This document shows positions 2,966 through 31,638 of a stretch of DNA of 32,000 bases, in pieces. Under the pieces are notes generated by a model. It saw only the letters and a list, made by a program, of their open reading frames with translations, searched no databases and had not been told where the DNA came from. How positions within the stretch are numbered: position 1 is the first letter of the stretch; each line of letters starts with the position of its first letter. Origin of the DNA: Candidatus Saccharimonadota bacterium (GTDB lineage: Bacteria > Patescibacteriota > Gracilibacteria > Absconditabacterales > Absconditicoccaceae); NCBI GenBank assembly GCA_030429145.1, contig JAUIDC010000001.1, forward strand, positions 480,001 through 512,000. The letters are read 5' to 3'. The position numbers and the translations under genes are program-made.

Positions 2966-3041
2966 TATGGCAATGCTGTTTGATAAAGAAATAGCTCTTT
3001 ATCAATTATAGGGAAGGGTGCCCCTAAACACGAAAATTAAC

Positions 3042-4256: not shown

Positions 4257-4294
4257 AAGAGCACTATAATTATTGGGTAGAAAATATCTATATC

Positions 4295-6301: not shown

Positions 6302-6327
6302 GAGCCTTGCAAGAGATAAAGAGCATG

Positions 6328-7479: not shown

Positions 7480-7496
7480 GGTCTCTTATAAATATA

Positions 7497-8867: not shown

Positions 8868-8888
8868 AGAGAGAGTATGAGATAAAGA

Positions 8889-9740
8889 TTAGTTTGAACA
8901 CATTCTTGTCCCTTCTTGCACTTTTCCGTTAACTGATGAGAAGGTTTCATTGATACGAGAGAATTTATCTATGAGTGTTGCCCGTCTTGTTTCGAGAAGG
9001 TAACTTTTTGTATATGTTTCCCAGACATTGGTCATGAGAGTGTTACTTTTTCTTACCATGAGTGTTTGTATGTATGTCATTTCATCTTCGATGCGTCTTT
9101 TTGCGAGATCTTCACATCAAGCGAGGTTGTAGCGAGAGTCGAGATCACTAGTCGTTACAAAGAACTTACTTGTGACGCAAGCTGCTTGTCTACATACCGC
9201 CGTATATCTTGTTGCGAGATCAAGATCACCGTAGTTTTCTATCTGGCAAGTGTTGTTGTTGATGCGAGCTTTGTATCGGCCTGCTGGGTCCCGTACTTGT
9301 AGAAATGTATTTTGTAGGCTTACGGGAGCATTTCATTTTCCATCGTCTTCTCGTTCTTTGAGCTTTGTTGCCCATTCGTCTCCTTTCGAGTCTTTGCTAT
9401 CACCAAGTTGATCATCAAGTTTGAAGAATCATCTACTCACAAGATGGTCAAAGATATATGGGCTTTCTGCGTTGCTAGTGTTTTGTGTCGGTCCTTCACA
9501 CTCGTTTACGATGGATCCTATCTGACAGCAATATGATTTCAGATCTGCCAGCGCTCCTTCAAGGTCATCGCTACTCAGTGGATTAACAGTAGTAACATTG
9601 ATAGAGCTGAGCGGGTTGAAGTTCTCATTTGCTACCAAGCTACAATCATACAAAATATCAGCACTCGCAAAACTGCTGGCGATGGCCAGTCCTACGAGAG
9701 AGATAGATCAAACTGCTTTATAAAGCATCTGTCTTTGCAT
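8889..9740 (-). CDS. 283-aa signal-peptide, Cys-containing protein, family not recognised
   Basis: Starts MQRQMLYKAV[TGA]SISLVGLAIASSFASA, 5 nt after the giant gene's TAA. Track ORFs 9429..9653 and 8889..9080 are in frame. Gap 9081-9428 has TGA only (9333, 9117; also 9708 and 9429). The stop is TAA at 8889-8891. Confidence 0.75.
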
Positions 9741-9745
9741 GATTT

Positions 9746-12700: not shown

Positions 12701-15700
12701 TGGTATCTGTGGTATAGACACATTGAGATTCGTTTCTAGATCTATAGTTGGAGGAGTTGGTAGGTCTGGAACTCTTGGTAGTGGTACATTCAATGGAACG
12801 AAATTGAATTTAGGTAGGACAATGTCCATGCCAAGATTTATATTGGAGAGGTCTATATTGATGTTTGGTATCCTGAAATTTGGTATCGGTAATACAGGGA
12901 GATCAATACAGAGGAGACTCAAGGTACAAGAGTAGAAGTCGTAATTGTCTACCTTACACTTTCCACACTTTGTCTTCCAGTTTACCGAGAAGTCTATGAG
13001 CACTTGCCATGTTTTGACTGCGCTGATGAGGAGAATGATAGCATCTACATATTGCTCAAATCTTCTTGCGTTGAGTTGCAGCCAGTTTGTTATACCATAG
13101 GTGAAAGTAGATATAGTATCAGAGACTTCTGTAAGATATCTTTGTGATACACCAAGCCATTTATTGAGTTCAATTGGAAACTCTCTGTACTGTTCAAGTA
13201 CATTGATATTTTGTTTTAGTGCTCTGACTACCTGCGCAGATTTGCTACTGACGCTAATGTACTGTTGTAGTTTTTGTTCACATGCACTTCTTTCAAAAGC
13301 AGATGAGTATGCAGCACATGTGCCTTCTATACTTTGTGCTAACTGATTTCGCTCTTGTAGTGTTCTTTCATTTCTCTCTGCTCGGTCGGTGAGATAACCC
13401 TTATATTTTGTTAAGTCTTCTTGTGCGATGAAAGGAACCTGTATATTGATGTTCTTCGTATTGATGTTGATGAGTGGGACGTTTTCAAAAAGAGAAGAAA
13501 GAGCGTCGAAAGGATTTGAGACTGTATCACTATTTTGTCTCATACCTTCTCTACTAAAGAGGCTTTGTGCAACATTTTTTCTTGCCGATGGTCCTGGATC
13601 TGTCTGATTTTGGACATCCTCATAGAGCTGCCCAAGTCTGTCGAGAGAGAGGGTGTCAAATCACTCAAAAAGAGAGGATAGTTCAGGTAGATAGAGATTG
13701 ACTTGTAGGTTTGTCAGATTGTTGATGATATATCTGATCTGATTGTCCATCCACTTGTTGATGATACATTTTACGAGGCCTTTCACATTTCCGCCTTCTA
13801 TTTTAAGGTTGATAGATTGTCATCATCTGAGTGATTCGCTACCTGCAGAAAATCTCGCAGATGAGACATATGCCGGTTCTTGATCAAAATGTATAAGATT
13901 TCATGCATAGCCTCCACCTGGAGCAGAACTACTTCCCGGAGATGATGTTGCACTACCTCCTGGAGTAAGAGCGAAAGGAGAAGAAGGTCTGTTAGGATTG
14001 TTTGAAGGACGGTTACATGTTCCACCTTGTGCGAGGTTGTATTGTCGTGATGGCACGGTAAGTTGTGTGTTGGCAGGATCATTGTTGTTTTTGTCTTTGC
14101 CAAAGTTTTTCGCAAGGACGATACAGTTTCCTGCTATATGTCTAAATGGGCTTGGAATCTTTGCGCCTACAGTATAAGGGCCAAAACAGATTCCGATACC
14201 GACACCCATGGTAAGTGTTGGAGACACGTAAATTCTTATCATAGAAGGATATGCACCACCTGGTCCCCAGTAGAATCCATCGGTAGAGCCTTTGAGTCCA
14301 TATGGAAATGGTACGGTATAAGGACCAGCATAAACAGTTCCTGGGAAGAAGAAGGCAGGCAGTCCTTTGTCTACCATGAGTTTACATCCAAATATATTAT
14401 ATGTTCCTGGCGAGAGGAAAGCCATATTAAACGGCACTGGTGGTCAGCTAGTTGCTCATCATTTGCCAAGCTGAAATCACTGGCAGAGGCCCTTTATCGC
14501 AGTGTCTACTTGTAACTCTGCCTCATCAACAAAGTCCTGAAATGCTTGATTGTTGATGTCTATCGAGAGATTGCCACCTTGGATAAATGTCTGTCACTGA
14601 TTCCATTGCTCAAGTACTTCATCCATGCCTGGCATGTCTACAACTTGTGGATCATCACTGTCTGCAGCTTCTTTAATTTTTCACTGCACATCAGCAAGAA
14701 GATTCTTTACAGCATTTTCTGCTTCTTGTTGTGCTTGTGTAATATCACTTGCTAGATTGATATATGACTCTGAGAAGTTCTTGCCTCTGTCAGACATGAA
14801 TGTTCGATAGCCCTGCTGGCAGCTATCTGTAGAGTAGGTTTTTATGTCGGTGTACTCATCTTTGTTGATGTCTTCTAACTCTATGCTAATCAGCGTCGGA
14901 GCGACATAGTTGAGTGTATAAGAAAATGAAACAGTTTGTCAGGCCTGTAGGGTGATGTTGTCTACCATATACTCGTATCCATTGGATATGTTCCAGTCTA
15001 CGACTGATGCTGTCGGTAGTGTTCATCTATTTCGTGATGAGATGCTACCATCATCATTTTTCTCGATCTGTCGTGGTCCTTGTATCTGATCAAGGTAGGT
15101 GAATTGTGTAGATTGTCTCGCTGTAAGAGTAACAGTTACTTTTATCTGTTCTCCATCAGTAAGTACGCCATTTGCTGTCCTTGAGTATTCTTTTGCAATA
15201 CTGATAGGGGAATTATTGTCCAATAAATGAATTGGCATATAGGCAATGTTTTCTGTGGTGATATTGTTTTCGTATGAAGGTAGTTTACTGATTGGCGATG
15301 AAGAGTACTGGATAACTTCAGGGAGCCCACTGTTTACGATGTTTGTGACATCTAGTGTTGAGAAGTCGCTGTCTTTTCCTTTGACGAGATTTTGAAATTG
15401 TGGCTGAGATGCTAGAGCGGAGTCTGTATCATTGTTAGGATCTTCTTCAGCAGGAAGAGTCAATCATCTTCGATGAACAAGGCTGTTGTCATAAATCTTT
15501 TGTCCTGGGGTGAGTGTAACGCCGTACGATTTGATAAGTTTTTTATTTGCATCAATTCTTGTCTGTCGGTTTTCATCACAGTCGCTGATATTCTTGGAAA
15601 TATAATTGTCTCATGCTGATGAGTTTCCACCATAGAAGAGCGTAATATTTCAGAGGGTATCATTGGTAACAATATCTATGCTTCCATCATTATCCATGTC

Positions 15701-18700
15701 TCTCACAAACATCTCATGGGCGTTTTTTATGTCCTCATCACCTCATGGTATAGCAAGACATATTTGCTTTCCATCAACGTCCATTTTTCCTTCGTTATTT
15801 TTATATACTCTGAGAGTATCTTTATTTGTCTGTACGATGATATCTTCATAACTATTGCCGTCTGCATCACCAATAAAGACATTTTTTATACCATCAGCAA
15901 TGAGCATAAGCATTCATAGGTCATTGAATGGCTTGTTTTCACCTCCGTGATTTTTGAGTATTCTTACACTTCCATCAGTGTAAATTACAAGCAAATCTTT
16001 TTGTCCACTTCTGTCTAGATCGAATGGTAGTGTTTGAGAGATGCTTTTCTCCGATTCCGTGAATGTAAGTTCACCGATACCAGCATCGTAGTCTGTTGAA
16101 ACAACTTTGCTATTATTACTCTGACGTGCGATCAAAGGATCTCCGTAGGTGATGAGAAATGGAGATGCCCCGTGTTGAGTCGATTCTCATACATTGTCTC
16201 ACTGGGCAAAAGCTGTAGCTGCTTGGAAAGTATTTTTTCGATTGGTCTGTGTGTCTGCGTCACGACTTTCCTCGATACCTCCATTCCAAGAAGTTTGAGA
16301 ACTGAGAGGAGATGCATTTCTGTCGTAGACTATCCATCATGCAGGACTATTTGTCGATCATCCAAGCCAGCTCTTTTCTACTCAAGCATTGTCGCTAAGA
16401 TTAAAATAGTTTTCTTGTAGGCTCGCATGAAGACGAAGTGTTCCCACGCGTTTCCCTTGTAGTCTTACCTCCCATATCATATCGCGGTTGTTGTCATAGT
16501 TCTGTGTTGATACAATTTCAGCTGCGTTGTTATTGCTGTTAGGATTCCAGACGGTTTCTCCATTTACTACAATAGATCTGTTTTGAACAGTGTTTGAAGT
16601 AATCGAACTGTCGAGCTGTTCAGGAGTGTAGATGATAGTGTTGTTCCCTATGCTTTCATTGGTAGCTCACTGTCTTACTGCGAAACCATTAGCATTTCCT
16701 AGAGAGACATATCAATACTTATCTAGATCATAGATAAGTTGATTATCTTTTGTACTAAGTGTTACAGTATGACTGTCATATATTTGTCCGTTTTGACTGA
16801 TGCGTGCAAGAGCAGGCATGACGCGTTCGGGGTGTGTTAAGAGCGTGGTGACGGCTATAGTCTTATCTGAAGAGCGGATAGTATCCCCAGCTTCGTTGGC
16901 TTGTTCTGTGAAGTAGCCCCATTTGTTTCATCGGTCATTACCAGCAAGAAGGAGGTACATCGCATTGAGGTTTGATGACTTTCGTTGTGGCGCCAAAGTA
17001 GTGACTGTCTGAGTGTCACGTAATTGCTCATTAATATTTTTATTAGCTATCTCAGCATACAGATAATGATTGCCTCCTATTTTGCCGCTGTCGATAGTGA
17101 ACGAACCAACGCCATCTTCATCAGTGCTTACCGATGTATTTTTGTTTCCATTGATAGTTATGTCTCCGATAGCTGTGATATTAACTGTCGTCGTGCTCGA
17201 AACAGGGTTGTTTCGTCTGTCATAGACCATTGCTCTTGCAGAAAATGTTTTGTCGGCAAGCATGTTTTCAGGAGTGAGCAGTGCTACGCGATATGGCTCT
17301 GCCGACTCAATAGTTACAGGAATTGTTTGGAGGGTAAGTCATGGGACCTCTATCGTTAGAGTGTCGTCTCCTGCGCGGAAAGAAGGATATAGGAGGATAG
17401 TTGCAACACCGTTTCTTATAGAGAACGATTGTTGTTCGACAAACTCTTTTGATGTGATGTTTCTTCATGACACAGCATATGTTGTTTGTTTTGAGCTACC
17501 TGGTATGAGTAGTCCGTTTGTGCTTCTCACGATAGCAGTAGAGTCTAGAGGATTGCCATTTGTATCTGTGAGTGTTAGTACAACTCTTGGTAGAGCTGAC
17601 TCTTGGAGCTGCGCCACGTTGTTTTGTGTTGAGAAATAGTTGTCGGTATTTTCAGGGAGTGTGATATTTATGTTAGATGCTGTTTGAGAGTTGTATTTTA
17701 TTGAAAGTGTTCCGTTTGTCAGAGAGAGAGATTTAGATGCACGAGGCGCAACACTTGTAGAATTTGGGTTGATAGGTTCAAGAACGAGATCTATCGATAA
17801 TACATTTCCAGGAAGGTTTGCTGTGTCAAGATAGTATGCTTGTGTATCATTGAGTTGTTGCAATTGGATTTCCCTTTCAGCTGTTCCGTTGCTGATGATC
17901 TGTCAGGCAGAGGTGGTTAGTCTATATGTCGTTGTGGTTTGTTCTACTTTATTTCCGTAGGTGTCATAGCCTGCGACTAAGATAGGGAGCTGAGAGTTGT
18001 AGAGAATTCTCTCTGTCGGTGTGATAATCTCTGCTCTTGTCATAGCTCCTGCTACGATAGGTATAATTATCTGTTTTTCTGCACAACGAGAACCTTGACA
18101 GACTTTGACATCCAATATGCTTGAACCTACATTTGTTGAAGCGAGGCTAATAGGAATAGCGCGTGGGTTGGTAAAGAGGTTTTCTTGGAAGACATATTCG
18201 GACTGACAAAGGTTTCTGTTGTTTGCGATCGGGCAATTGTCTCCTGTTCCACTGAGGCGCACTGTAAGCGATCCCAAGTCATCTTTACTAGTGAGACTGA
18301 GGGCAACATCATCTCTATCGTCCATACTCACACTTGCTTTGTTGAGTCTCATAGTAAGCGATGCATCGAGAGAACGAATGAGTGCTTGTGCATCTTGTGA
18401 AAGATTTTCACTTCCTCCTCATATCAATGCTTTCCATTTGTCACTAAAGCGCTCTACGTTGTCTCATCGCTGTGTTGCTGTTTGCTCAAACTGATCAAGA
18501 GAAAGAACAGGTCACTGAGCATTGTTGAAATTGATTTTTACTACATCAGAAACAGTGAGCTCTTTCAAAGAGTCCATCCAACAAGAGAGGGCTTTAGGCC
18601 ACTTTAACAATGGTACTGTCGCATTTTTTTCGATACCGCATCTTTTGTTCCTTTCTGTTTCTATCATTTCCAATCATGCATTTTGTGCATCGCTACGAGT

Positions 18701-21442
18701 ATTTGCTGTTGCAGAAGCAACAATCTTTTCTTGGTTGATAGAAGAGACAATAGCAGGTGTTGTAGTATTCTCTATGATATCATTACCATCGGAATTGATA
18801 TAGACTAGTTCATATCATTTTGGTTCGTATTCAGGCGTGATAGCAGAGGAAGGGTTATCATTTTTAGTAAGATATTGTTCCACGACGTATCCAATCTTTT
18901 TGTTGATATCCAAAGAGGACTGATTGTTTTGGAGATCAGTCATCAGGTCATTTGATGCTGGTTTAGTATATCGTCAAAGGTTATGTCGGTGGAGTATTTG
19001 TGCGACCTCGTTAATGGTGTTTTCTCCAAGTACGTTGATGAAGAAGTCGCTAGGAAGAGTATTGTAAGAGCGTCATTTAGGCGATGCGAACTGATCTACA
19101 GTTGTCAGCTTGTCATAGGCAGCAGCTCTTGATGCATAATAGCTCGCTGCTTTTGTGTTTTCCTGTGAGAGTGTAAGATTGATCGCTGTCACCTTTTCTT
19201 GTAAGTATTGTTTGATAGCATCTGCAATTTCGGCAGGAGATTTAAGTGTGAGCGTATCATTGTTTTTATTGTAGACTTCGACATTGTAGATGTTTGGATA
19301 GTCAAATCTGATTGCGCTTCCTCAGATACCTTTGAAAGCAACATAACGAGTGCTGTCGATAGGTCTGTCTTGGGTAAGAGGATTCATATTTTCGATTTGC
19401 TCTGGAGTCGGAGATGTATGAGACTCTAATGTACTGATGGTTTTATAAACATAGTTGTCTCCACAAGCTTCAGGGCTTGTGTTCTGATTGTTATTTGTTA
19501 AGTGTACTCTCGAAGGAGATGATTTATATGTAGCGAAATATTCAACGCTTCCTGGTTGCTTCTGAGGGTAGCCATTGTACCGGTTTTCATTTACTTCTCC
19601 TGGAGGAACTGTCTTGCCACATACAAGCCAAGGAGCAACGCGATACTGTTGTGTTCTATGTAAGAGTGAATTGGTTAACTCTTCAAGAAAGTACATCTCT
19701 TGACTCATTTTTGTGAGAGTCATTTTAGAACCAGCAATATCAAAGACAGGTCAACCAATGCTTGTGTCAAAGCGAGGATTCCATGCCATCTTTGGATTGT
19801 TTTGTTTGAGTTGCATAGTATCTCCATCGATATTGAGAGGACTTATACCTCCCCAATATTTAGTTACAAAGTCATCTATCTCTTGGCTTGCTCTACACTT
19901 TCTATCTTCATAAAATTTTTGATCACTTGGTACAAGCATCGTATTGTAACCTCTAGAACTTTCTACCTGCCTAGAAGAGATACCATAAGAAGCTCCTATA
20001 GATCTGGCTGTATAATCAACATCGATATCATCTTGGTCTCCTTCGGTTGTATAATCATATGTTGTCAAGTTCTGTCGACTTCAAATATTCTTCCATGTGC
20101 CTGGATAGATAGATATATCCTGTGTTGAAGAAACATCGTAAGCGCTTCTTCCAAAATAGAAATTTTCAAATCTCTCTTCCACGAACTTCGGTAACAATGG
20201 AGGCGGTGCACCACATCTGACTTTTTCATATACAAGAGGAATAGGGATGTGCAGATCGTAGTTTTCTGTATCTAACTTATTGTAAAGTGCATCTTCAAGT
20301 AACGAGTTTGCATCTAGTAGAACCACGCTTGTAATATTGTCTTTGAGAACAGTCTTTTTGATGTGGCTATCAACGTCCGTATCAGACCATCTTCCACCAG
20401 CTTTGACATTTTCAGATATACTTGTAAGAAACTCGGGTGTGAAGAGACTCGTATAAGGGTGTACCAGTCCTCAAAGTGACTGTCCGATCATTAGTGTCGG
20501 GATCCTGTCGCTGTCACCTCCGACTTCATTGAGGTCTGCGTCAGCTTCTTGAGCCATCCTATTGAGATTGTTCTTTCGGCTACTGATAGTAGAGTTATAC
20601 TGTTCTCCGATCTCTCCAAGTTCGCTATAATCATCATCTGTAGGTAAACTGTTGTTTGCTGTATAGTTGCTGACCAGAGACACAGCGCTTTCATTCGCTC
20701 CATCTTTAAAGTAGTCTACTATGAGGTTAGTAAACCTATGATAGGTCATGTCTTCATGAAAGAGGAAGCTATTGGTATATCACGATAAGAACTGATCAGA
20801 AAAATATTTCTTGAGTCCAATAAAGTCGTCGTATCGTATTTTATTGCTTGCATAAGCTGCTGGATTTTGATCGTAGTTCCTTAGTTTTTGAAAGAACTCC
20901 GCATATTCAGCCGTGTCATCAAACTGTATCATACTTTGTCGGATGTCTGCTTTTTGATCTCCGTTTTCGTGTGGGACAAAGTAGGTAGAGCTTGGGTCAA
21001 ACACATATGTGGGTTTTTCGAGGTCGGTATATGGGTATATACTTGGATAGACGTAGTTATTTTCTTTGATAACAGGAAGCGGAAGGTCTCCTATGAGGAT
21101 AGTTCCTATCAGTGCTGACTTCTTTTCTTTGATGCCTTCCTGATAGAGATTTTCCAGCATCTTCCATATGTCTGTAGATTGGAAATTATCTTTGTTGATA
21201 GGCATAAGTAGGGCTTTGGTCATCGAACTGCGCTTTTGTAGGTGGTTTTGCGCATACCAGTCGATGTCGCTACGATATTGTTGATAGATGTTTCTATCTA
21301 CAAAGACAGCTATGATAGATTCTGCTGATTCGTCTGCTGCCTGAGCTGTATTACTAAAGCCAAAAATCCACTGTGTGAACGAGTGGGAGAAAAAATATAT
21401 ACCTATCAATATACCTATACTTACTTTGGTTTTTACCGACAT
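9746..21442 (-). CDS. Giant 3,898-aa secreted surface or adhesin-like protein with bacterial Ig-like and FG-GAP-type repeats; translated with UGA=Gly
   Basis: At least 17 track ORFs from 20780..21517 down to 10238..10615 lie in one frame (end coordinate mod 3 = 1). I read every inter-ORF gap codon by codon and found 51 in-frame TGA, no TAA/TAG and no frameshift. The preferred start is MSVKTKVSIGILIGIYFFSHSFTQWIFGFSNTAQA (ATG 21440-21442), which reads as a signal peptide. The stop is TAA at 9746-9748. Confidence 0.85.
12593..12907 (-). repeat. Periodic Pro/Ile/Leu/Asn-rich segment inside the giant protein
   Basis: About 105 aa read IDLPVLPIPNFRIPNINIDLSNINLGMDIVLPKFNFVPLNVPLPRVPDLPTPPTIDLETNLNVSIPQIPVLPMPPTLPELPSFIPNIELNLPTLPPAPRIPKIAP. 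It is preceded by a Cys knot, KCGKCKVDNYDFYSCTLSLLC. Confidence 0.6.
15464..16135 (-). other. FG-GAP/VCBS-like Asp-rich repeat region inside the giant protein
   Basis: Repeats of the DxDxDG type: DLDRSGQKDLLVIYTDGSVRILKN, GDADGNSYEDIIVQTNKDTLRVYKN and DMDNDGSIDIVTNDTL. One more copy lies near 11400 (NDLNGDAKEDIILWD). Confidence 0.55.
16928..18352 (-). other. Bacterial Ig-like (invasin/Big-type) repeat region inside the giant protein
   Basis: Segments typical of Big domains: VAGYDTYGNKVEQTTTTYRLTTS, LTLTDTNGNPLDSTAIVRSTNGLLIPGS and MVYDRRNNPVSSTTTVNITAIGDITINGNKNTSVSTDEDGVGSFTIDSGKIGGNHYLYAEI. A further Ig-like unit lies at about 10238-10615 (ISATDNQGNVASSNINISW). Confidence 0.6.
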
Positions 21443-21550: not shown

Positions 21551-21585
21551 AAAAAAGTCCCTTCTGTGAGAGAAAGGACTTTTTG
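21551..21585 (-). terminator. Rho-independent terminator after the fibre-protein pair (symmetric A-run/T-run, could act in both directions)
   Basis: The sequence aaaaaAGTCCCTTCTgtgagAGAAAGGACTtttt has a 10-bp stem with one mismatch and a 5-nt loop, flanked by an A-run and a T-run. It lies 34 nt downstream of the TAATAA stop at 21616-21621. Confidence 0.6.
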
Positions 21586-21618: not shown

Positions 21619-23511
21619 TTACTCGTTTTCGAGAGCAGTGACTCTTGCTTCTAGTGCATCAATGGCTGTGGCATTTGTCACATACTGATTGTAGAGATCG
21701 GTAACCGTTGGGTTTTCTCCACCTCATTCTGATCCACCGTATGTTGTATTAAGATCTGTTGCTCTTTGATCTAGCTCTTTGATGGCTTGGATAACAAGAC
21801 CTATCAAGTTTGCATACTCAACAGACTTGTAACCATCTTCATCTGTATGAACGATCTCTGGGAATACGTTTTCAACCTCTTGTGCAAGAAGACCAATGTC
21901 AGCTCTTCCGCTTGTTTTCCATGTAAATGTATATCCTGTAAGACTATCAATCTTGCTGATAGCACCAGTAATAGGCGTTATACTTTCCTTGAGTGTTTCA
22001 TCTGAAACGATGTATGTAGTATTTGCAATGATATCTCCACCTACATGTAATTTTACCTGAGGATTTGCAACACCGATACCGACAGAACCTCCGTTGTAGT
22101 AGATGGCTCCATTTGAACCTGACATCCACATGCTATTAAGAAGGTTTGAGATAGATGGTACGAGTACCACATTACCAAGACCGTCTACACCAAGATTTCT
22201 AATACCATAACCTGCATATGAAGAGAAACGTACGTTACCGACAACTTCAAGAGCAGCAGCAGGGAAGAGAGTGTTGATACCTACACGAGCGGCAGCAGCG
22301 ATGAATGAAGAAGCTGCGTTACTTACCTGTACGCTACCAGTATTGAGACCTACATTGTAGTAGAATCTTACTGGTTGACGTGTAGCAGGAGGGTTGCTAC
22401 TTACAGGGTAGTTAGAGTCGTTTTGTCCATCAGCAACATCGACACAGTAGGCTGCACTATGATTTGAAACGATACTGCTACCACAGTCATTAGTTGACGC
22501 TGATGTATCACAGTCACATCTTGGGAAATTTGACCAGAATGTATACTGGTATGGTTGTAATTCTGTATAGACATCTACGCTAGTACCAAGATTGTCAACT
22601 CATCGAGCAGGATATGCATATGGCAAGAATGCAGAGCTCAGATGGATAACTCCCATCCACAATGCAGCACTTGAAACATGGAAACCTTCTGCACCTGTGA
22701 GCACGAAAGAGTATCCACCGCCGCCTGTCGTTGGTAGCATCACACTACCACTCATGTCTACTCTCAGAGCGCTATCTACATGAAGCTTTGCCATAGGAGT
22801 ATCTGTTCCGACACCGACGTTACCATTGCTATCATGAAACCATGTTCAGTAGAAAATATCATTGGTCCCTGAAATTGCATGCCATAGAGACGATCCTCCT
22901 GGGTTTTGCAATCATCCTGAACTGTAATTACATATAATGGTTCCGGTAGATGACCACCCTTGGACATATCAGGTTGAGCCGCAGTCTCCTGTTCCAATAA
23001 TTGGAGCACATTGTGCTGCACCGTTTGAGATACCTATCATGGTCTCTCCAGCTCCACAAGTGAGCGTTACTGTACCAGTAGCACCTCCACCTGTTGAGAA
23101 ATTGATACCAGTAAGGTGCCCTGTGGTGATCGTTCCAGTGGCGATATGGATTCCTGAGATGGTATATGGCTGGATGTTGCTGCCATTGATAAGATCTCTC
23201 ACGATATACCCATCTGCATCTGTTTTGAGTACACCTCCAGTTGGACCTCCCAACGCTGCTGGATCTACCCAGATACCTGTAGAACTGAGTATCACCTTAT
23301 TGTCTCCTTGTGGAGAACCATCAGTGGTGATGCGGAGCTCTTTAATGGTTTGTATCACATTGTCGATAGACGACTGTATCTGTAGATCAGCATGTGTGAT
23401 CGATCATCGTAGACCAGTCAAACCAACCAGTGCAAGTACAACCATGACTCCCTTCATGAAAGGATGACGTGGAAGATGATTTCCTAAATCAAATGTGTGC
23501 TTTTTTGGCAT
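21619..23511 (-). CDS. 630-aa fibre-like surface protein with a C-terminal peptidase S74 (endosialidase-type intramolecular chaperone) domain
   Basis: Track ORFs 22969..23358, 22600..22794 and 21724..22170 share one frame. The gaps have TGA only (23404, 22969, 22912, 22846, 22600, 21724). N-terminus: MPKKHTFDLGNHLPRHPFMKGVMVVLALVGLTGLR[TGA]SITHA. Repeated GNVGVGTDTPMAKLHV-type motifs. S74 signature: YIVSDETLKESITPI...IGLLAQEVENVFPEIV...VEYANLIGLVIQAIKEL. The stop is a double TAA at 21616-21621. An alternative start is the internal MKGVM. Confidence 0.8.
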
Positions 23512-23562
23512 TTTGAGATCAATAATGATTAAAGAATTTTTATGTTAGTATGATGATTGATA

Positions 23563-26500
23563 TTATTCTGGCAATGTTCCATCTCGTTTCATTCCTCATT
23601 CGAGGGCGGAGATACGAGCTTCAAGTATTTGTAGTTCTAGATTTTGTTGATCGAGTCTTGCTTGTCACGCATCCAACATCTTTGTATGTATTTCTTTGAC
23701 TGCCTGGATGGCAACAGCGATGAGATTATAGTATTCAACTGCTTTTCTTTCTGAACCATCAACTAGATTGAATGTTTTCACAAGGTCAGGGAAGACAGCT
23801 TCTACATGCTGAGCAATAACACCGATGCTTGATCTACCGTCGAGGATCCAGCTAAATGATACGCCTGTAAACTGTTGGATACCTGTAGCGGCATTTGTCA
23901 GAGGTGTGATATTTTCTTTGAGTGTTTCATCAGAGACAATATAGTTTGTGTTTGCAATGATGTCTCCCGCTACATGTAGTTTTACAACTGGTCAACTTGT
24001 ACCTATACCTACATTTCCTCAGTTATAATAAAGTCACTTGGTTCCAATTTGCCATAACCCAGCAGACTGTCCATTGAGATCTCCAGTAGTGAAAAGGTCT
24101 CCTTGGTTGTCGACACTAAGATATGAGTAGTTTGTATTGTTGAGATTGGTGAAACGGACATCACCTACAACGTCAAGTGCTGCTTGAGGGGTCTCTGTAT
24201 TGATTCCAATTTTACCTCCATTTGCATAGAAGATAGCACCTTGATAGTGTACTGAAAGTGCTCCAACAGTACCAGCGCCAGGCATGACTGCTTTGTCTAC
24301 AAGAGCTTGTATCATACCGTCGCCATCTACTCTGAGAGTAGGAATGTCTCCTGTAGAGATGATCGTACCAGTAGAACCTACCGAACCACTAAGGAACGAC
24401 CCAGTGAGACTTGCAGCCCATCGATATCTTTCTAGCTTTCGACCAACAGTACCTGAATGCATACTGTAGTTCGTTCCGTTTGCTCGAGTGATATCAATAC
24501 AGTTAGGTCCTATATAGTCTCCAGTAAAGTATGGAGCAGGATTGTTGAATATAGGAGAGAATGGTCTGTTGTTTACACTGTGACTTCCGTTACCATTGTA
24601 GCTTGTGCGCACAAAGTCGTAGTATCTGTTTGCATATTGGCTATTGAGAAGAGGACTCATGTTGAAGTATCCTTGATATGGTGCTCCAGATGGAAGTGGA
24701 GGATAGTTCATAGATGGCCATGCTATATTTGGAAAGTGTGAGTTCATCTGACCTCCCGCTGTCGCACAGTCTGCTGAGTTGTCGTCTGCATCACATTCAC
24801 ATCTTGGAGGAACAGGAAGCACCTCGGCTGCATATCGAGAACCGTCGGGTTGCCAGTCGCCCATTTTCATTGTATAGATGTTGTTTGCAAATGTGATATT
24901 GAGGCGATGCATAAATGCAGCTCCATAAGGATAGTGTGTTGCTCCAGTTGTTACTGTTCGTCCAAAAGGAGCTCCTCCAGAAGGTGGTGCTGCATTGAGA
25001 GCGAGGTCGACACACCTCAGTAGTCCTATATGATATCCACTTGTTGCAGGAGCATAGTATGTTGTTCCGTATGGAGGAGTTCCGTTTGTTCCACAGTCTT
25101 CTGTGTTGATGTCGACATCACATGGACACTGGTAGACAGGCTCCTGAGATCCTCGTGTGAAGAGCTGTTCAAGAGTGTGAGGCACTTGAGCATACAGTGT
25201 TGAGCCTGTTGCATAACTAGGAGGAGTCGCTGCTACCGCTCATGAAATAACAGCCGGTCCTGTTGAAGGTGATGAGACATGAAGTCTTACTAGTGGGTTG
25301 TCGGTACCAACACCGACCTTTTCGTTGACGATGCCTCCTGAAACTATCAGAGTTCCTGATACATAACCTCCGCTATAGAGATCAAAGACTTTATCCATTT
25401 TTGCGAGGGTGTATTGCTTTGCTGCGTTTGGAAGAACGTCGTCGCTAATGTCGTAGCAGTGAGGACCGAGATCGCTACCTGTCCACACATAGCCGTCAGA
25501 CGGAGACCGAGGGATAGTAGGGTAAAGGAGGTTCATTTGTTTTCCAGGCACATTACACTCATTTCCTGTTCCTACGTCACATCCACATCTTGGAGGTAAG
25601 TTTCCTACAGTGTTTGGAGATGGAGAATAGTTCAGGTAGTAAGTGCTACCCGATAGAGAAATATTCATAGAGTGTTGGGTCACTTTATTGTTTGTTGTAT
25701 CAATGTCATAACATGACTGTTGACCTATATAGAAGAAATACTGAGAAGTAGGTCTTGAGTAGGTAGCAGGTACATTACATGCTGCATCAGTACTAGTGAT
25801 GCTACTATCACAAGGACACTCGTATCCTTGATAGTATTGTCCGATAGGTGCTGAAGCATAAACCGAATATCCAGTCCCTGCAACATATCCTGTGACAAGG
25901 CTATACACACCGCCCGCGCCAGTACCATAATAGATGTCGTTAGCATTACTAGGTGTTTGTTTCCAGTAGTCACCATTGGCTGCAGAGAGTACGCCTCCTG
26001 TTAAAAGACAGTTCGGACTGCCAATGCCTGACCGTCATATAAACGATCCATTTGAACAGAGGGGAGAAGGTATACCACTTACTAAACCTGCTGGTGCACA
26101 TGTAGCATTACCATTGGTAAATGAGATGATTACCTCTCCACTTGGACAAGAGCCATCATTTACTGTAAGAGTACCAGCTCCTATATAATTGTAGATATTA
26201 AATCCAAGATTTCGCACGGTGATGGTTCCAGTAGCGATAGAACTACCAGTGATACTATAAGGAGAAAAAGCACCTCAAGTTATTTTATCTGATCTTAAGA
26301 AAATTCCTTCAGGAGCAACTAAGACTCTCTCATTTCCTAGAGAAGGATGGAGTCTGATAAGTTTGTTGTTTGTTCATGAAAGCTCTACTATGGCCGTGCT
26401 ACTTTGATCTCCGTCTTGCGTGATCATTAGCTTTTGCAAGATAGGAAAAGATCTTGTAATGCTTGAGTCCAGTGTTAGAGCATGGACGCTTCCAAATACT

Positions 26501-26589
26501 AACAAACTGCCTAAAAATGCTAGGCCAAGCAACTGAAGTCTGTTGAGTGATGTACGGTGCTTTCTGTGCTTTCTGTGCTTTTGTTTCAT
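23563..26589 (-). CDS. 1,008-aa fibre-like surface protein; longer paralog of 21619..23511 with an internal module duplication and a C-terminal S74 chaperone domain
   Basis: Track ORFs 26374..26589, 26035..26217, 25240..25908 and 24034..25185 share one frame. The gaps have TGA only (26374, 26275, 26035, 25240, 24034, 24019, 23992, 23665, 23596). Signal peptide: MKQKHRKHRKHRTSLNRLQLLGLAFLGSLLVFGSVHA. S74 signature: YIVSDETLKENITPL...IGVIAQHVEAVFPDLV...VEYYNLIAVAIQAVKEI. The stop is TAA at 23563-23565. Confidence 0.8.
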
Positions 26590-26932
26590 TATACCCAGAA
26601 ATGAGTGAATAAAAGCTCTTTTTTCTCACATACAATAGTATGTAATCATATTGAATTTGCTGTTTTTGTACTATTTTAAGATGAAAAGTGTATAGCAAAT
26701 AGCAAAAACAAGAACCAATGTAGTTAAAAAATGATACAATATAAAACTGCCAGTATGTGCTAAAATGCTTCATCAGAACGTCTTTTTTAGATGTTTGCGG
26801 GCTGGTATGATTTATAAAAATGAAAATTTGCTAACTACATTATATCAGAGCCTATTGAAACATCTTGATAAGGGTGCGGATTCTTGTATAAGAAAGGTGT
26901 TATAGTAGAGGTTGTTCTGCTATAGTAAAATA

Positions 26933-27089: not shown

Positions 27090-30000
27090 ATGAAAAAAAC
27101 AATTTTAATGGTGATGGGGATATTGATTAGCTTTGCTATCCTTCCATCACGAACGATGGGGCAATATGCCCAACCACAGATCATACCAGACTCATTTGTT
27201 CAGGATGAGCTGGTAATAATTACTAAAACTCCTGTTGTTTGGGACGAATGTTCTCAGTCTATAGAAGGAGTTATGCATTCCCTGCCCATGGGAAGTACAA
27301 TCGTAGGTTGTGCCGATAAAGCTCTTTTTAAACAAGACGCAGAATCCACAGCTCAAGGTATGTATGTAGGGACTAGCTTCCTTGTGAAGTTGCCTACAAG
27401 CTCTCCTTACTCTGATGCACAGAGTGCTTTACACTATGTGCAGGAGTGTTTACAAGAACCGACGAGTATTATCTCTGTCGTAGATGTAAATAGGGTAGGT
27501 GCGTTACATGCTTCTTCTCCTGTGTCATATAACGATCCTGAGTTTGCTAACTCTCAATATCATCGTAAATATGATTTGACAGCCATAGCAAATGGTGTGA
27601 AATATACAGGATGGCAGCATGCTACTGGCTACAAATTTAAGAACACTTCTAAAGTTTTGATAGCAGTACTAGATGCTGGACTGAGATTTACTCACCAAGA
27701 TGTTCAAAATGCATACTGGGTTAACTCATCAGAGTCTTCAAATTCGTCTGATGATGATAGCAATGGTTATGTTGATGATATCAATGGCTGGGATTTTGTT
27801 AATAATGATAATGATCCAACCGATGATAATACTGGGAACTGGCATGGAACGCATGTGTTTGGCATTATAGCTGCTAGAAACAATAATAGTTACAATATTT
27901 GCGGGATGATTACTGACACGTTATCTACTATGGTTTTGAAAGTTGGTAACGCATCAGGCAGTGTAACTGATTTCTGGACAGCTTCAGGTTATAATTATGC
28001 CTTGGCTAAAGGAGCTCGTATTATGAATATGTCCTTTGGCTTTAATAATTCACCTACGCTTCTTATGAATGCGATAGCGAACGGTGTAGCAAACTACAAG
28101 GCTGTTCCTGTAGCATCTGTTGGCAACACAGGTAATCAATATTATGGATATCCTGCCTCAGGTGCTAATGTGATTACGGTAGGTAATGCTAGCTATGGGG
28201 GGACACTTTATACTGGCTCTAGCTATTCAGATAGTGTAGATGTAACTGCTGCGGGTGTTTCAGTTCGTTCCTTATTGGGAAATAGCAATACGGCGAGCGG
28301 TAATCTTACTGGTTCGTCTATGGCTGCACCTCATGTAAGTGGCTTCGTATGGTGGATCCTGAAAATGGATACATCATTGACAGTGCAACAAGTGACTCAG
28401 AAAATCCGTTCTATGGGTATGAATGGGTCATTTGTCTCTGGTCAAGGTTGGGGTTATGTTGTTGGGTTAGATACATTGTGTTACAACACGATGATGCCCG
28501 ACACAAGCGTTACTCTCTCTAAATGTGGGGGAATGCAACCTCTGCCTGTTACGAAAGTGTTCCAAATAGTAGATAGTGAGCGTTATGGTGTGTCATGGAT
28601 CGTAAATGATTCAGTTAACACAAACGTTGCTCCTACTGGGACATTTGACTACAAGATGGCCTGGGAATCTGCACCAAGAAGTTCGGTGTCATACAATGAT
28701 ACCTTTAGGTATGGTAATAAATACCTACACTTTACTGTGTCTGGCTCAGGTGGTACGACACCTTCTACCACAGTTCTTTCTTCAAAGGACACAATGTGCG
28801 TAGGGGATACGCTTCATATTACACGTGGAGGAAACACTGCTAATGCCAAGAGAAAGTGGTACAAAAATTCCACTTTGGTAGACACTTCGGTTGTCTATAT
28901 TGATACAGCAACTACAGCAGGCGTCGACACCATCAAGTTGGTCGTAGATCTTTCTACGACAGGGACTTGTTGGACTAAAGCGTATGACACGACAACTAAG
29001 TTGATCGTTAAAAACGCTACTGTTACGCCATCTGTATCTATAAGTGCTAATCCGGGCAATACAATCTGCTCGGGTACGTCAGTGACCTTCACTGCGTCGC
29101 CAACCAATGGAGGCTCTTCACCGAGCTACCAGTGGAAGGTGGGTAGCACAAATGTGGGTACCAATAGCAATACATATACTTCATCAACGTTATCAAACAA
29201 TGATGTTGTTTCATGTATTATGACTCCTACTACGGGAGGGTGTTATACTTCTTCAAGTGCGACATCAAATACTATTACTATGACCGTGAACACACCGGTA
29301 ACTCCATCAGTGAGTATCTCCGCTAATCCCGGTAATACAATCTGTGCGGGCACCAGTGTGACCTTCACTGCATCGCCAACCAACGGTGGCTCCTCAGCGA
29401 GTTACCAATGGAAAGTGAATAGCAGTAATGTTGGTACAAATAGCACAACCTTTAGCTCATCAACATTGTCTAACAATGATGTTGTAAGCTGTGTGATGAC
29501 AACTTCTTTAAGTTGTGTTACATCGGGTAATGCTACTAGTAACACGGTTACTATGTCAGTGACTAACAACGTGACACCAACGGTGTCTATAGCTCCTACA
29601 AGCACAACTATTTGTGAAGTAGGTGGGTCTGCTACATTGACAGCAAGCACTACTATCAGTGGTGTAAGTTATCAGTGGTATCGTGGCACTACGCCAGTCG
29701 GTACAAATAGCAATACTCATAATGTTTCTGGTATCTCACCAGGCACACATAGCTATACCGTTCAGATCACTGTGCCAAATGGATGTTTTACGTCCAGCAC
29801 GGCAACCAGCAACACGGCTTCTATAACTGTGAATGCTGCAACACCCGTAAATAGTTCTGCAAATGCCTCATCGCTTTCCATCTGCAATACGGTGGGAGAT
29901 ACGATCACTGCTAATTGCAGTGTGACTGGTGCTACCGTTCTTAAATGGCAGCACGATGATGGCACTGGCTTCGTAGATGTGATAGGTTCAAATGGTACAT

Positions 30001-30692
30001 ACTATGCACCAAGTGGTCTGTCAGGCGGTACTCACAAGTATCGTGCAATCTATACCATGCCAACCGGCTGTTACACTCAAGATAAAGATACAACTAACGA
30101 AGTGTCTATTAGTGTGACAGAAGCACAGGCTTTCACTGCTTCTTTAGCAGGTACTGATGCTTTTGTGCAAGCAGGTGTGTGGAAAGGGCTTTATACCCTT
30201 ACATTACCTGTCGGTTTGACAAGCTATACTGTAAAATGGTATCGTATCATCAATGGTCAGCCTGTTCTACAGACTACCTTGAACGATATAAAAACTTGGG
30301 TACGTGATCCTTTGGATAACGACCACCCAGACACTGTTTACGCAGTGGTGATACCAAAAGGGTGTTGGGACAAAGATTCTACACTTACCAATCAGGTCAT
30401 TGTGACCGCTTCGGTAAGTGTAGCCGCACTTCCCAAGCTGTCTGATGACTACCGCATATATCCTAACCCTGCAACTACCCAGTTATTCATAACCGGGTTG
30501 AAGCGTGATGATCGTATGATCATGACCAATGCAGTTGGACAACAAGTTCTACAGTACACGTTTGTACAGGAGAATAATCCTACACAAATTAATCTGTCTG
30601 GACTTCCCAACGGCATCTATATGGTGAGATTCATCTCTCATGATGGACAACCATACGCAGGAGGCGGAGCAAAAATAATCAAACAAGAGTAA
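27090..30692 (+). CDS. Subtilisin-like serine peptidase (family S8) with tandem Ig/PKD-like repeats and a T9SS (Por) C-terminal sorting domain, 1,200 aa
   Basis: The ORF is uninterrupted in the standard code. Signal peptide: MKKTILMVMGILISFAILPS. S8 triad motifs: AVLDAGL (Asp), WHGTHVFGIIAA (His) and GSSMAAPHVSG (Ser). The C-terminus YRIYPNPATTQLFITGL...LSGLPNGIYMVRFISHDG...KIIKQE matches the T9SS secretion-tail pattern of Bacteroidota. The stop is TAA. Confidence 0.9.
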   Translation: MKKTILMVMGILISFAILPSRTMGQYAQPQIIPDSFVQDELVIITKTPVVWDECSQSIEGVMHSLPMGSTIVGCADKALFKQDAESTAQGMYVGTSFLVKLPTSSPYSDAQSALHYVQECLQEPTSIISVVDVNRVGALHASSPVSYNDPEFANSQYHRKYDLTAIANGVKYTGWQHATGYKFKNTSKVLIAVLDAGLRFTHQDVQNAYWVNSSESSNSSDDDSNGYVDDINGWDFVNNDNDPTDDNTGNWHGTHVFGIIAARNNNSYNICGMITDTLSTMVLKVGNASGSVTDFWTASGYNYALAKGARIMNMSFGFNNSPTLLMNAIANGVANYKAVPVASVGNTGNQYYGYPASGANVITVGNASYGGTLYTGSSYSDSVDVTAAGVSVRSLLGNSNTASGNLTGSSMAAPHVSGFVWWILKMDTSLTVQQVTQKIRSMGMNGSFVSGQGWGYVVGLDTLCYNTMMPDTSVTLSKCGGMQPLPVTKVFQIVDSERYGVSWIVNDSVNTNVAPTGTFDYKMAWESAPRSSVSYNDTFRYGNKYLHFTVSGSGGTTPSTTVLSSKDTMCVGDTLHITRGGNTANAKRKWYKNSTLVDTSVVYIDTATTAGVDTIKLVVDLSTTGTCWTKAYDTTTKLIVKNATVTPSVSISANPGNTICSGTSVTFTASPTNGGSSPSYQWKVGSTNVGTNSNTYTSSTLSNNDVVSCIMTPTTGGCYTSSSATSNTITMTVNTPVTPSVSISANPGNTICAGTSVTFTASPTNGGSSASYQWKVNSSNVGTNSTTFSSSTLSNNDVVSCVMTTSLSCVTSGNATSNTVTMSVTNNVTPTVSIAPTSTTICEVGGSATLTASTTISGVSYQWYRGTTPVGTNSNTHNVSGISPGTHSYTVQITVPNGCFTSSTATSNTASITVNAATPVNSSANASSLSICNTVGDTITANCSVTGATVLKWQHDDGTGFVDVIGSNGTYYAPSGLSGGTHKYRAIYTMPTGCYTQDKDTTNEVSISVTEAQAFTASLAGTDAFVQAGVWKGLYTLTLPVGLTSYTVKWYRIINGQPVLQTTLNDIKTWVRDPLDNDHPDTVYAVVIPKGCWDKDSTLTNQVIVTASVSVAALPKLSDDYRIYPNPATTQLFITGLKRDDRMIMTNAVGQQVLQYTFVQENNPTQINLSGLPNGIYMVRFISHDGQPYAGGGAKIIKQE
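29025..29570 (+). repeat. Two adjacent, highly similar repeats of about 90 aa (Ig/PKD-like modules) within the S8 gene; more diverged copies continue to about 30130
   Basis: TPSVSISANPGNTICSGTSVTFTASPTNGGSSPSYQWKVGSTNVGTNSNTYTSSTLSNNDVVSCIM... aligns with TPSVSISANPGNTICAGTSVTFTASPTNGGSSASYQWKVNSSNVGTNSTTFSSSTLSNNDVVSCVM.... Later units keep the C...YQWY/KWQ...GT...C pattern. Confidence 0.8.
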
Positions 30693-30714
30693 TTGATTTC
30701 AATGAACATAACAC

Positions 30715-30746
30715 AGCGCTCGGTATTGTCCCGAGCGCTTTTTTTG
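30715..30746 (+). terminator. Rho-independent terminator after the S8 gene
   Basis: AGCGCTCGGtattgtcCCGAGCGCT is a perfect 9-bp GC-rich stem followed by a T-run. It starts 23 nt after the TAA. Confidence 0.85.
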
Positions 30747-30882
30747 TTGGAGGAGTGTTTTTGTGCAAAAAATTATTGTAATGGAAGACCACTTCTTTAT
30801 ATTGGTAGTTCGCGCAGAGAGAGAACTTTAAATGGTAAAATTCGATTAATTAACAACAAAAAGTACGAGAAATAGAATAAAT

Positions 30883-31638
30883 ATGCTAATTATCCTGCGT
30901 CGAAATGCGAAGATGCACGCGTGCTGGGTTTTGATCCTGGCGGGCTGTGCAAAAACGGGATACGATGGAAAATATGGCGTTTCGCCTTTATCATCGCCCC
31001 AATTAATGCCCAATACAATAGGGAGTGAAATGAATCAACTTCCTAATGACATGGACTCTATCAACATTCATACTGTTAACGAAGATCAACCAGCAGAAAG
31101 TTATTCTGATAAAGCTGGTTCATATATTGATTCTTCACTTGCTCAGTCTATATTCCAAGATGTGTTTGCTCAGGGTGAAAACCTCTGGGGGAGCTATTTC
31201 ACTGACGGACAATTTGTGTATGCTCACATGGTTCGTCGGTATATAGAAAGCAAGTATAACATAGAGTGTAGAAAACTGTTCATATTTGGTGACATTACAG
31301 CAACCTCTTTACGGTATGATTGCTGTGCAACATGGAGTTATGATGTTGCCTGTGTCTTACTAGGGAAAGAAGGGCGTCTTTACGTCATCGATCCAAGGTT
31401 ATTTAACTCGGTAGTGTCAAAAGATGTTTGGATGCAAGCACATGTCTCACCAACAATGTGCGAGCCGTATCCGATCATCTCGACATCAGAGCTAGTCTCT
31501 GGGGAGAGTCTCTTCCCACTGGGTGGGCCATCACTAGGCTATAAAAAAGATCCTGACTATCAAGCTGCTGAAGCCTGGAAGGGCTACTATGCTGATAGCA
31601 CAGGGTGTGGCTGTGTGAATGCCCTCGCTGTAAAGTAA
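30883..31638 (+). CDS. Protein-glutaminase-like lipoprotein (catalytic Cys and His positions appear substituted)
   Basis: The lipobox VLILAGC follows a basic N-terminus; an alternative start is the Met at 30913. The core DGQFVYAHMVRRYIESKYNIECRKLFIFGD...CCATWSYDVACVLLGKEGRLYVIDPRLF aligns, from my memory of the sequence, with Chryseobacterium protein-glutaminase DGCYARAHKMRQILMNNGYDCEKQFVYGN...CCVAWSYHVAILV...KRIIDPSLF. The ORF has no TGA and stops at TAA. Confidence 0.7.
   Translation: MLIILRRNAKMHACWVLILAGCAKTGYDGKYGVSPLSSPQLMPNTIGSEMNQLPNDMDSINIHTVNEDQPAESYSDKAGSYIDSSLAQSIFQDVFAQGENLWGSYFTDGQFVYAHMVRRYIESKYNIECRKLFIFGDITATSLRYDCCATWSYDVACVLLGKEGRLYVIDPRLFNSVVSKDVWMQAHVSPTMCEPYPIISTSELVSGESLFPLGGPSLGYKKDPDYQAAEAWKGYYADSTGCGCVNALAVK

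Follow-up and report, generated by a model that had tools for sequence, protein, structure and literature searches.

Two tandem minus-strand genes, here called A and B, occupy positions 21619 to 26589 of a 32,000-nucleotide stretch of contig JAUIDC010000001.1 (contig positions 480,001 to 512,000; hereafter the window). We consider it probable that they are chromosomal genes of a tiny, uncultured candidate phyla radiation (CPR) bacterium with UGA reassigned to glycine, and that they encode Sec-exported proteins, most likely homotrimeric surface fibres acting in host contact in a manner similar to the mosaic adhesive trimer (MAT) fibres of Bdellovibrio. An earlier sequence-only reading of this DNA had proposed exported fibres other than ordinary prophage tail fibres. 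The matches to the S74 chaperone/protease domain, the signal peptides and the lack of a phage module support this proposal; the idea of a non-phage surface fibre pair was right but is precedented by the Bdellovibrio fibres, which the pair resembles.

Minus-strand open reading frames (ORFs) of the window were read with TGA as a sense codon, and residue numbers of A refer to the 612-residue form starting from the Met at 23457. In the frame 21619-26670 (minus strand), TGA is the sole interrupting codon over 5 kb, and two ORFs are obtained, with the same end (21619) and start of B (26589) as proposed earlier:

23563..26589, minus strand: gene B, a 1008-residue secreted fibre protein and paralogue of A, with nine in-frame TGA codons and a TAA stop
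21619..23511, minus strand: gene A, a 630-residue secreted fibre protein from the MPKK start at 23511 (612 residues from 23457), with six TGA codons

The MPKK start of A is used by the database copy P0001, and a long basic leader is common to the homologues P0168 and P0171. Reading the region from 21.6 to 26.7 kb with translation table 11 gave only ORF fragments of 80-380 residues, a difficulty resolved by treating TGA as sense. Under the latter reading, the ORF content of the whole window approximately doubled, producing a compact same-strand array that includes a 3898-residue protein.

Both proteins end in an S74 domain followed by a short tail (all features minus strand):

21772..22005, minus strand: S74 chaperone/protease domain of A, residues 485-562, with Ser485 (22003-22005) and Lys490; from Pfam, AlphaFold2 and Foldseek
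23701..23934, minus strand: S74 domain of B, residues 886-963, with Ser886 (23932-23934) and Lys891; from Pfam and paralogy to A
21622..21771, minus strand: C-terminal tail of A after the S74 core, residues 563-612, ending ...LEARVTALENE, helical where modelled
23566-23700, minus strand: equivalent C-terminal tail of B after the S74 core

The hidden Markov model search matched Peptidase_S74 (PF13884) at residues 485-536 of A (E = 2.5e-14, 53.7 bits) and 886-938 of B (E = 1.9e-12, 47.7 bits), above the Pfam gathering cutoff of 22 bits, and thereby confirmed the S74 signature previously noted in both genes. The catalytic Ser codons were found where they had been predicted (TCA for Ser485 at 22003-22005; TCT for Ser886 at 23932-23934), and the Lys follows five residues after the Ser in both proteins, within the motif SDETLK (A 485-490, B 886-891), in keeping with the proposed Ser-Lys dyad. 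The accompanying motifs IG(L/V)(L/I)AQ(E/H)VE.VFP and VEY.NLI...AIKE were also recovered in both translations. In an alignment of 32 homologues, the Ser and Lys of SDxxxK were invariant. The C-terminal 240 residues of A and B are 43% identical (E = 3e-50).

The AlphaFold2 model of A 287-577 reached a predicted local distance difference test score (pLDDT) above 90 for residues 486-576. It includes a helix at model positions 262-290, corresponding to A 548-576, and ends at A 577; heptad-like tails similar to that of A were seen in Bdellovibrionota homologues. Foldseek comparison of the modelled S74 domain with the PDB gave the MyRF ICA domain (7dc3) as the best match (E = 1.5e-5, probability 1.0), followed by the K1F endosialidase chaperone (3gw6/3gud, probability 0.98-1.0) and, weakly, the Bd3182 beta-helix. 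As modelled, the S74 domain of A has the fold of the solved chaperone domains. Trimerisation and autoproteolytic release of this domain are thus predicted, by homology, for both A and B.

Each protein begins with a predicted signal peptide, followed by an N-terminal domain shared by the pair:

26479..26589, minus strand: signal peptide of B, residues 1-37, MKQKHRKHRKHRTSLNRLQLLGLAFLGSLLVFGSVHA and then a cut before LTLD, by inspection
23389..23511, minus strand: signal peptide of A, ending in MKGVMVVLALVGLTGLRGSITHA and then a cut before DLQ, by inspection
25915..26478, minus strand: N-terminal domain of B, residues 38-225, homologous to that of A
22843..23388, minus strand: N-terminal domain of A, residues 24-205, with two Cys-bounded loops (C134-C150 and C159-C176)

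By inspection, both signal peptides have a basic n-region and a hydrophobic core of 12-15 residues, and the predicted cut is preceded by T-H-A in A and V-H-A in B (positions -3 to -1). The junction THA|D is kept among homologues. Together, inspection and junction conservation bear out the signal peptides that the sequence-only reading had assigned to the two proteins, and export by Sec is predicted on this basis. The N-terminal ~200 residues of A and B are 35% identical (E = 4e-16), which, with the C-terminal similarity, agrees with the collinear architecture described before. We propose the N-terminal domain as the cell-proximal or anchoring end of the fibre.

An exhaustive search of 1.84 billion representatives with the N-domain profile, in which TGA-free segments served as queries, returned only 12 proteins. 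Most of them were short, apparently truncated pieces, likely due to truncation at TGA by standard-code gene calling. Two full-length relatives, P0172 (467 residues) and P0178 (685 residues), were built in the same way as A and B, with a signal peptide, the N-domain, Cys loops, capping loops and S74. A word-indexed search with the N-terminal and middle 371 mature residues of A found only A itself and one weak loop match. Given these two results, the N-terminal and middle parts are regarded as lineage-restricted orphans.

A Cys-bounded module of ~17 residues, C-[PG]-x-G-[EQ]-[VT]-[MIL]-x-[GS]-[IF]-x-N-G-x-[AP]-x-C, occurs in the N-terminal domains of A (134-150, 159-176) and B (148-164, 178-194), with no Pfam family match in either protein. 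It is present in 5-7 tandem copies in the otherwise unrelated secreted proteins P0174 and P0177, and a looser version, CAANEFLSWNGTALVCAP, was observed in Bdellovibrio MATs (contig L012, ORF 7220-11815).

Between the N-terminal and S74 domains lie the middle modules and the predicted fibre tips:

22006..22287, minus strand: distal fibre tip of A, residues 391-484, with capping loops 392-405 and 459-472; the C-terminus of the mature fibre if cleaved
22777-22818, minus strand: third capping loop of A, residues 214-227 (motif position)
23935..24213, minus strand: distal fibre tip of B, residues 793-885, with capping loops 794-807 and 860-873
25276-25317, minus strand: further capping loop of B, residues 425-438 (motif position)
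22288..22776, minus strand: middle region of A, residues 228-390, with half a Cys-rich module, PRCDCD at 312 and four Cys
25405..25875, minus strand: Cys-rich module of B, copy 1, residues ~239-395, with eight Cys and the motifs YxCPCD, PRCxCD and GPxCxDI
24490..25209, minus strand: Cys-rich module of B, copy 2, residues ~461-700, with the same 8-Cys pattern and insertions

Three copies of the loop motif [VI]G[IV][GN]xxxPxxxLxV were located both in A (214, 392, 459) and in B (425, 794, 860), in line with the repeated xVG(I/V)GT and VGINT-type motifs seen earlier. A sequence profile matched phage S16 gp37 (6f45), Bd2133 (8ond, E = 6e-5), MyRF (7dc3) and Bd3182 (8ojn) in the PDB; for the tip of A, the matches were to Bd2133 (8ond, 6e-5), Bd3182 (8ojn, 0.04) and the MyRF stalk loop (7dc3).

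Residues 239-359 and 461-622 of B are 26% identical (E = 1e-7), and the 8-Cys pattern is doubled exactly (258/260/271/293/335/337/345/378 and 488/490/499/526/597/599/608/697), by which we judge the internal duplication of B to be real but old. The extra duplication that the sequence-only reading had assigned to the longer gene therefore stands, but the intervals it gave were merely TGA-delimited ORF pieces holding the copies. Cys counts are even (8 in A, 20 in B), with none in the S74 domain or the tip, and thus fit extracytoplasmic disulfides.

A genome scan with the C-terminal half of A and B gave best matches mostly in Bdellovibrionota (Oligoflexia, Bacteriovoracaceae, Peredibacter, Bdellovibrio), and further matches in CPR bacteria (Moranii-, Wolfe- and Paceibacterota, Saccharibacteria, Gracilibacteria), DPANN archaea and Bacteroidota. 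Many of these ORFs carried a signal peptide and SDxxxK. JGI metagenomes gave matches to the S74 domain only and no N-domain family members, and IMG/VR viral contigs likewise matched in the S74 domain only, at 33-46% identity. By its matches, the C-terminal half of A and B is a widespread module.

The S74 module is classically a phage module, and A and B could in principle be ordinary phage tail fibres encoded by a prophage (whole or remnant) or a tailocin, with assembly on a virion or tail-like particle taking place in the cytoplasm. The proteins matched 32 (A) and 23 (B) PHROG families, mostly tail-fibre or baseplate; the best PDB sequence match was the S16 long tail fibre; and similar S74 domains occur on the viral contigs mentioned above. 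However, the PHROG and viral matches are confined to the last 100-150 residues. With the phage proteins K1F endoNF (3gw6/3gud), T5 pb1 (4uw8) and S16 gp37 (6f45), the pair shares the S74 domain, the dyad spacing and the extreme C-terminal position after a beta-helical or fibrous region. In contrast, the phage proteins have no signal peptide, assemble in the cytoplasm and dock to the virion by their N-termini, whereas A and B have Sec export signals, lie in a cellular context and differ entirely in their N-terminal and middle domains. Virion assembly in the cytoplasm does not suit proteins with Sec signal peptides and numerous paired Cys, and the N-domain relatives P0172 and P0178 are likewise full-length secreted proteins.

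The gene neighbourhood also speaks against a phage origin. Pfam and PHROGs were searched with the products of window genes g1-g6 and Pfam with those of g7 and g10-g11, and precomputed Pfam labels were used for the flanking Logan contig. No capsid, portal or terminase gene was found in the 32-kb window and 10 kb of flank, which upholds the earlier statement on nearby phage structural genes; no baseplate, sheath, tape-measure, integrase or lysis gene was found in the same DNA. The neighbours are instead giant or secreted proteins and housekeeping genes. We therefore regard the phage-fibre explanation as very unlikely.

The closest characterised counterparts are the MAT fibres of Bdellovibrio bacteriovorus, a set of 21 paralogues of which 13 have a C-terminal S74 with SDxxxK (Caulton et al., Nat Microbiol 2024, PMC10769870). 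All MATs have a signal peptide followed by a ~130-residue domain that is conserved and rich in beta structure, and their capping loops follow the consensus V-G-G/N-pi-x-x-P-x-x-x-L (PMC10769870). The fibres occur on the surface of the predator, with binding of prey glycans shown for one of them; Bd3182 cuts itself at S782, and the S782A substitution blocks cleavage (PMC10769870; structures 8ojn/8onb/8onc and 8ond).

A and B share with MATs a chromosomal location, a signal peptide, a long fibre, S74 with SDxxxK and a coiled-coil-like tail. The C-terminal 270 residues are 31% identical (E = 6e-20), and the profile alignments to Bd2133 (8ond) and Bd3182 (8ojn) pass through the capping loops. The motif GNVGIGTxxPxxxLxV of A and B is residue-for-residue the same as in homologues of Bdellovibrio sp. 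HCB-162, and the small Cys-bounded loop 'C-x3-E/Q-x...NG-x3-C-A-P' is common to both groups. Tandem paralogues are also found in both: contig L012 has genes for 1531 and 1236 residues side by side.

The two groups differ in the N-terminal domain. The ~130-residue MAT domain was not detected in A or B (BLASTP against two HCB-162 MATs, no N-terminal match), and hhalign of an 8-sequence N-domain alignment against an 8-sequence MAT N-domain alignment gave a probability of 0.1%. In its place, A and B have a rare lineage-specific N-domain, followed by orphan 8-Cys modules in the middle. The hosts differ as well: a CPR bacterium with UGA as Gly, whose cultured relatives have a single membrane (PMC8080830), as opposed to a diderm that invades the periplasm. 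Display, binding and cleavage were shown experimentally for MATs and are proposed for A and B. Thus, A and B would appear to work like MATs by all the sequence features considered, yet they lack one defining feature, and consequently we place them among bacterial secreted S74-terminated fibres, outside the MAT group.

The eukaryotic MyRF ICA domain (7dc3), the best structural match to the S74 domain of A, also has an upstream loop nearly identical to ARVGINTLFPAAALEVVGNV of A. MyRF is, however, a membrane-tethered transcription factor in which cleavage frees a DNA-binding trimer; it forms no extracellular fibre and has an unrelated domain context.

In the mechanism we propose, the signal peptide would be removed, behind THA in A and behind VHA in B. 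The C-terminal S74 chaperone would then nucleate trimerisation and folding of the preceding beta-helical, loop-capped tip, and Ser485/Lys490 (A) or Ser886/Lys891 (B) would cut the chain at the Ser, freeing a chaperone fragment of ~125 residues. The mature fibres would be ~461 (A) and ~848 (B) residues long, both ending in ...GDIIANT(T/N)YIV. Signal-peptide removal, S74 trimerisation and self-cleavage are predicted from strong homology to experimentally characterised systems. The family-specific N-terminal domain may hold the fibre at the cell surface, as analogy suggests, and the disulfide-rich middle modules and exposed C-terminal tip may contact the host or prey envelope; overall, the fibres would work as do Bdellovibrio MATs and phage receptor-binding proteins.

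Several observations weigh against this interpretation. Motifs for anchoring (sortase signal, lipobox or transmembrane segment) were not evident after the signal peptides of A and B, the weakest point of the proposal; cell attachment is accordingly an assumption, and the fibres could simply be released from the cell. Because the MAT N-domain is absent, localisation data for MATs are not simply transferable. The AlphaFold2 model of the first Cys-rich module of B had a pLDDT of 31, and the monomer model of the tip upstream of the Ser (A 287-577) was of low confidence, the latter being expected for a monomer of an intertwined trimer. The genome scan was pattern-based, and the choice of peptides biases the predator enrichment that it shows. 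The suggested role as a host or prey adhesin derives from analogy and from how related organisms live.

Among the proteins matured by S74 domains are also enzymes, for example endosialidases. A and B might be exported, S74-matured fibres that are not adhesins, forming instead the organism's own fibrous coat, cell-cell connections or tail-spike-like polysaccharide depolymerases. In transmission electron microscopy, stacked Vampirococcus cells are surrounded by fibrous material, which also lies between them (PMC8080830), the endosialidase 3gw6 provides an enzymatic example, and no ligand-binding domain of known specificity was found in A or B by Pfam and NCBIfam, the latter giving no match at all. 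The same two databases, however, revealed no glycosidase or lyase domain. Furthermore, the stretch preceding the Ser is short and rich in loops, as in MAT and fibre tips and unlike a large catalytic beta-helix, and a pair of divergent paralogues whose middle modules are shuffled or duplicated suggests diversified recognition more than a uniform structural coat. A non-adhesive function is consequently held to be unlikely, though clearly less so than assembly on a phage particle, and MAT-like host contact remains the preferred interpretation.

In CPR/Patescibacteria episymbionts and predators, host recognition and holding are usually ascribed to type IV pili and unnamed giant proteins. A and B are good, defined candidates for host gripping with a well-understood maturation module, and they are amenable to recombinant production: with the S74 chaperone of each protein, its mature tip (A 391-484, B 793-885) could be made and tested for binding to host envelopes. 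They extend the recently defined class of bacterial non-phage S74 fibres past Bdellovibrionota, into a bacterium in which a stop codon has been reassigned, and indicate that the MAT N-terminal domain is replaceable. As a broader hypothesis, possible but somewhat doubtful at present, predatory or epibiotic Absconditabacteria may use Sec-exported, S74-matured trimeric fibres for recognition of host or prey, with a lineage-specific anchor domain and duplicated or shuffled 8-Cys modules. If so, S74 fibres would be a recurrent cell-targeting solution in phages, Bdellovibrio-like predators and ultrasmall episymbionts, between which horizontal transfer would carry the module.

Vampirococcus and similar Absconditabacteria are epibiotic predators with a fibrous surface, and in the genome of Vampirococcus lugosii, secreted or membrane proteins of very large size are enriched and presumed to serve host attachment (PMC8080830). 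The present organism has the same lineage and code, and here the fibre pair adjoins a 3898-residue FG-GAP protein. In Vampirococcus, by contrast, the fibrous surface was ascribed to giant integrin, PKD or WD40-type proteins and S74 fibres were unmentioned (PMC8080830). S74 or endosialidase terms were not found in the top-ranked CPR/Absconditabacteria literature.

The genetic code of the contig is assigned, from alignments, to translation table 25 (TGA = Gly), since in-frame TGA codons align with conserved Gly. Between the paralogues, YYN-TGA-G aligns with YYNGG and FY-TGA-T with YYGT; in the homologue P0002 (50% identical to A), Gly stands opposite the TGA (AR-TGA-VDNLG and LKGVEVMG). In total, 3/3 informative sites in the alignments of A, B and P0002 matched Gly. 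In FolD, encoded in the flanking Logan DNA and aligned to PDB FolD structures, TGA occupies both Gly positions of the PVPGGVGP motif; four of its five TGA codons are opposite Gly in both PDB homologues shown, and the fifth is opposite Gly in one and Lys in the other. TGA is also found at the Gly of DEAGRGP in RNase HII, in the Gly-rich motif of HflX and at Gly positions of SufS in the flank. Throughout window positions 1-26670 and positions 11100-20756 of the Logan contig (L001), TGA serves as a Gly codon at ~1% of codons and makes up 7-27% of Gly codons in most genes. Table 4 (TGA = Trp), as applied in the public copy P0001 with W at the TGA sites, was rejected on the Gly alignments. No tRNA genes were found in the 42 kb scanned (window and flank).

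Among named organisms, the flanking SufS is closest to sequences of Absconditabacterales, SR1 and Gracilibacteria (52-57% identity; Vampirococcus, 52%). By their sequences, the flanking housekeeping genes place the contig in the Absconditabacteria/SR1-like CPR bacteria.

The fibre genes, B first, stand at the head of a 26-kb array in which genes for signal-peptide proteins share one strand. Directly downstream of the pair lies g7 (window 9746-21442, minus strand), which encodes the 3898-residue secreted protein and has 51 TGA codons. Its sole Pfam match is one FG-GAP_3 repeat (residues 1808-1870), the remainder being orphan, and it resembles the giant surface proteins reported for Vampirococcus. 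Within the orphan part are a stretch rich in Pro ('LP.lP') and, near residue 3000, a hydrophobic segment. Further on, window 371-9740 (minus strand) includes g3-g6, which encode four orphan proteins with signal peptides and conserved Cys; this region may be a surface or secretion gene island. Of the remaining two genes, g1 encodes a polytopic membrane protein of 864 residues whose tail is rich in Asn and Thr, and g2 a Metallophos enzyme (metallophosphoesterase). Apart from Metallophos, g1-g6 gave no Pfam or PHROG match, and all six genes are on the same strand as the fibre genes.

Upstream of the fibre genes, a ~4.7-kb island (27090-31638, plus strand) consists of two genes (g10-g11) whose 1451 codons include no TGA, where ~15 would be expected (P ~ 2.5e-7). 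One encodes a 1200-residue S8 subtilase with Ig/PKD repeats and a Por_Secre_tail domain, the C-terminal sorting domain of the type IX secretion system (T9SS), and the other a lipoprotein-like Gln_deamidase_2 protein. The island is flanked by recoded genes on both sides and present in two assemblies, and it looks like a recent transfer from a Bacteroidota donor. Since cultured relatives of the lineage have a single membrane (PMC8080830), the T9SS sorting signal is unlikely to work here. The donor could be the host itself, and, should host recognition by such fibres prove correct, the island would hint at a Bacteroidota host. Beyond it, the genes for rhodanese, HflX, a sigma factor, SufS, FolD, RNase HII and NhaA all contain TGA codons.

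The TGA-free segment with its Bacteroidota-type sorting domain, next to a region that table 11 splits into ORFs of 80-380 residues, could also be taken as a sign of pseudogene debris or of a chimeric assembly of a recoded organism and a Bacteroidota genome. We give this explanation almost no credence. TGA is the only codon to interrupt the 5-kb frame and stands at conserved Gly of paralogues, homologues and housekeeping enzymes, and the catalytic and structural motifs are intact in both A and B. The window and the independently assembled Logan contig are 100% identical, base for base, over the overlapping 11,118 bp, and recoded g2 and g5 occur together with unrecoded g11 both in the latter and in the 936,577-bp NCBI contig. 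A chimeric junction at g10 was rejected, as the two assemblies agree and recoded genes flank the island.

A hairpin resembling an intrinsic terminator is found downstream of A:

21551..21585, minus strand: intrinsic-terminator-like hairpin and U-run, folding free energy -18 kcal/mol, z = -5.7

In the folding test, none of 200 shuffles was equally stable, and the U-run follows the stem, so that the terminator claimed for the pair is well founded; a simple terminator scanner overlooked it because the stem takes up part of the T-run.

No template/variable repeats of the diversity-generating retroelement type were found between A and B. The sole DNA repeat they share is an 89-nt cleavage-site region (21968-22056 and 23897-23985) that is 80% identical and encodes ...VKLHV(G/A)GDIIANT(T/N)YIVSDETLKE(S/N)ITP. 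This segment takes in the final capping loop together with the cleavage site and dyad, and its conservation is far above that of the rest of both genes, suggesting strong constraint or gene conversion at the processing site.

Another N-terminal motif, A-[WF]-[ST]-x-P-...-PP-...-PLN-...-Q-x-K-x-G-x-L, was observed straight after the signal peptide in several CPR loop proteins, some with S74, and in one protein labelled as from a Xanthobacteraceae metagenome-assembled genome (L014, L020, L029, L063). It suggests a third interchangeable cell-proximal module for such fibres.

In public databases, recoded genes are shredded (table 11) or carry Trp at TGA sites (table 4; e.g., P0001, P0171 and P0172). 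Genes of this kind are thus invisible or fragmented under standard-code annotation and contain Trp in place of Gly in table-4 databases.

The TGA share of Gly codons is 6/81 in A, 9/115 in B and 51/262 in g7, and it is also higher in g5 and g6 than in the fibre genes. The low share in A and B possibly reflects the arrival of the fibre genes at a later time from a donor with the standard code, or possibly mere gene-to-gene variation, as g1 and g2 are also low.

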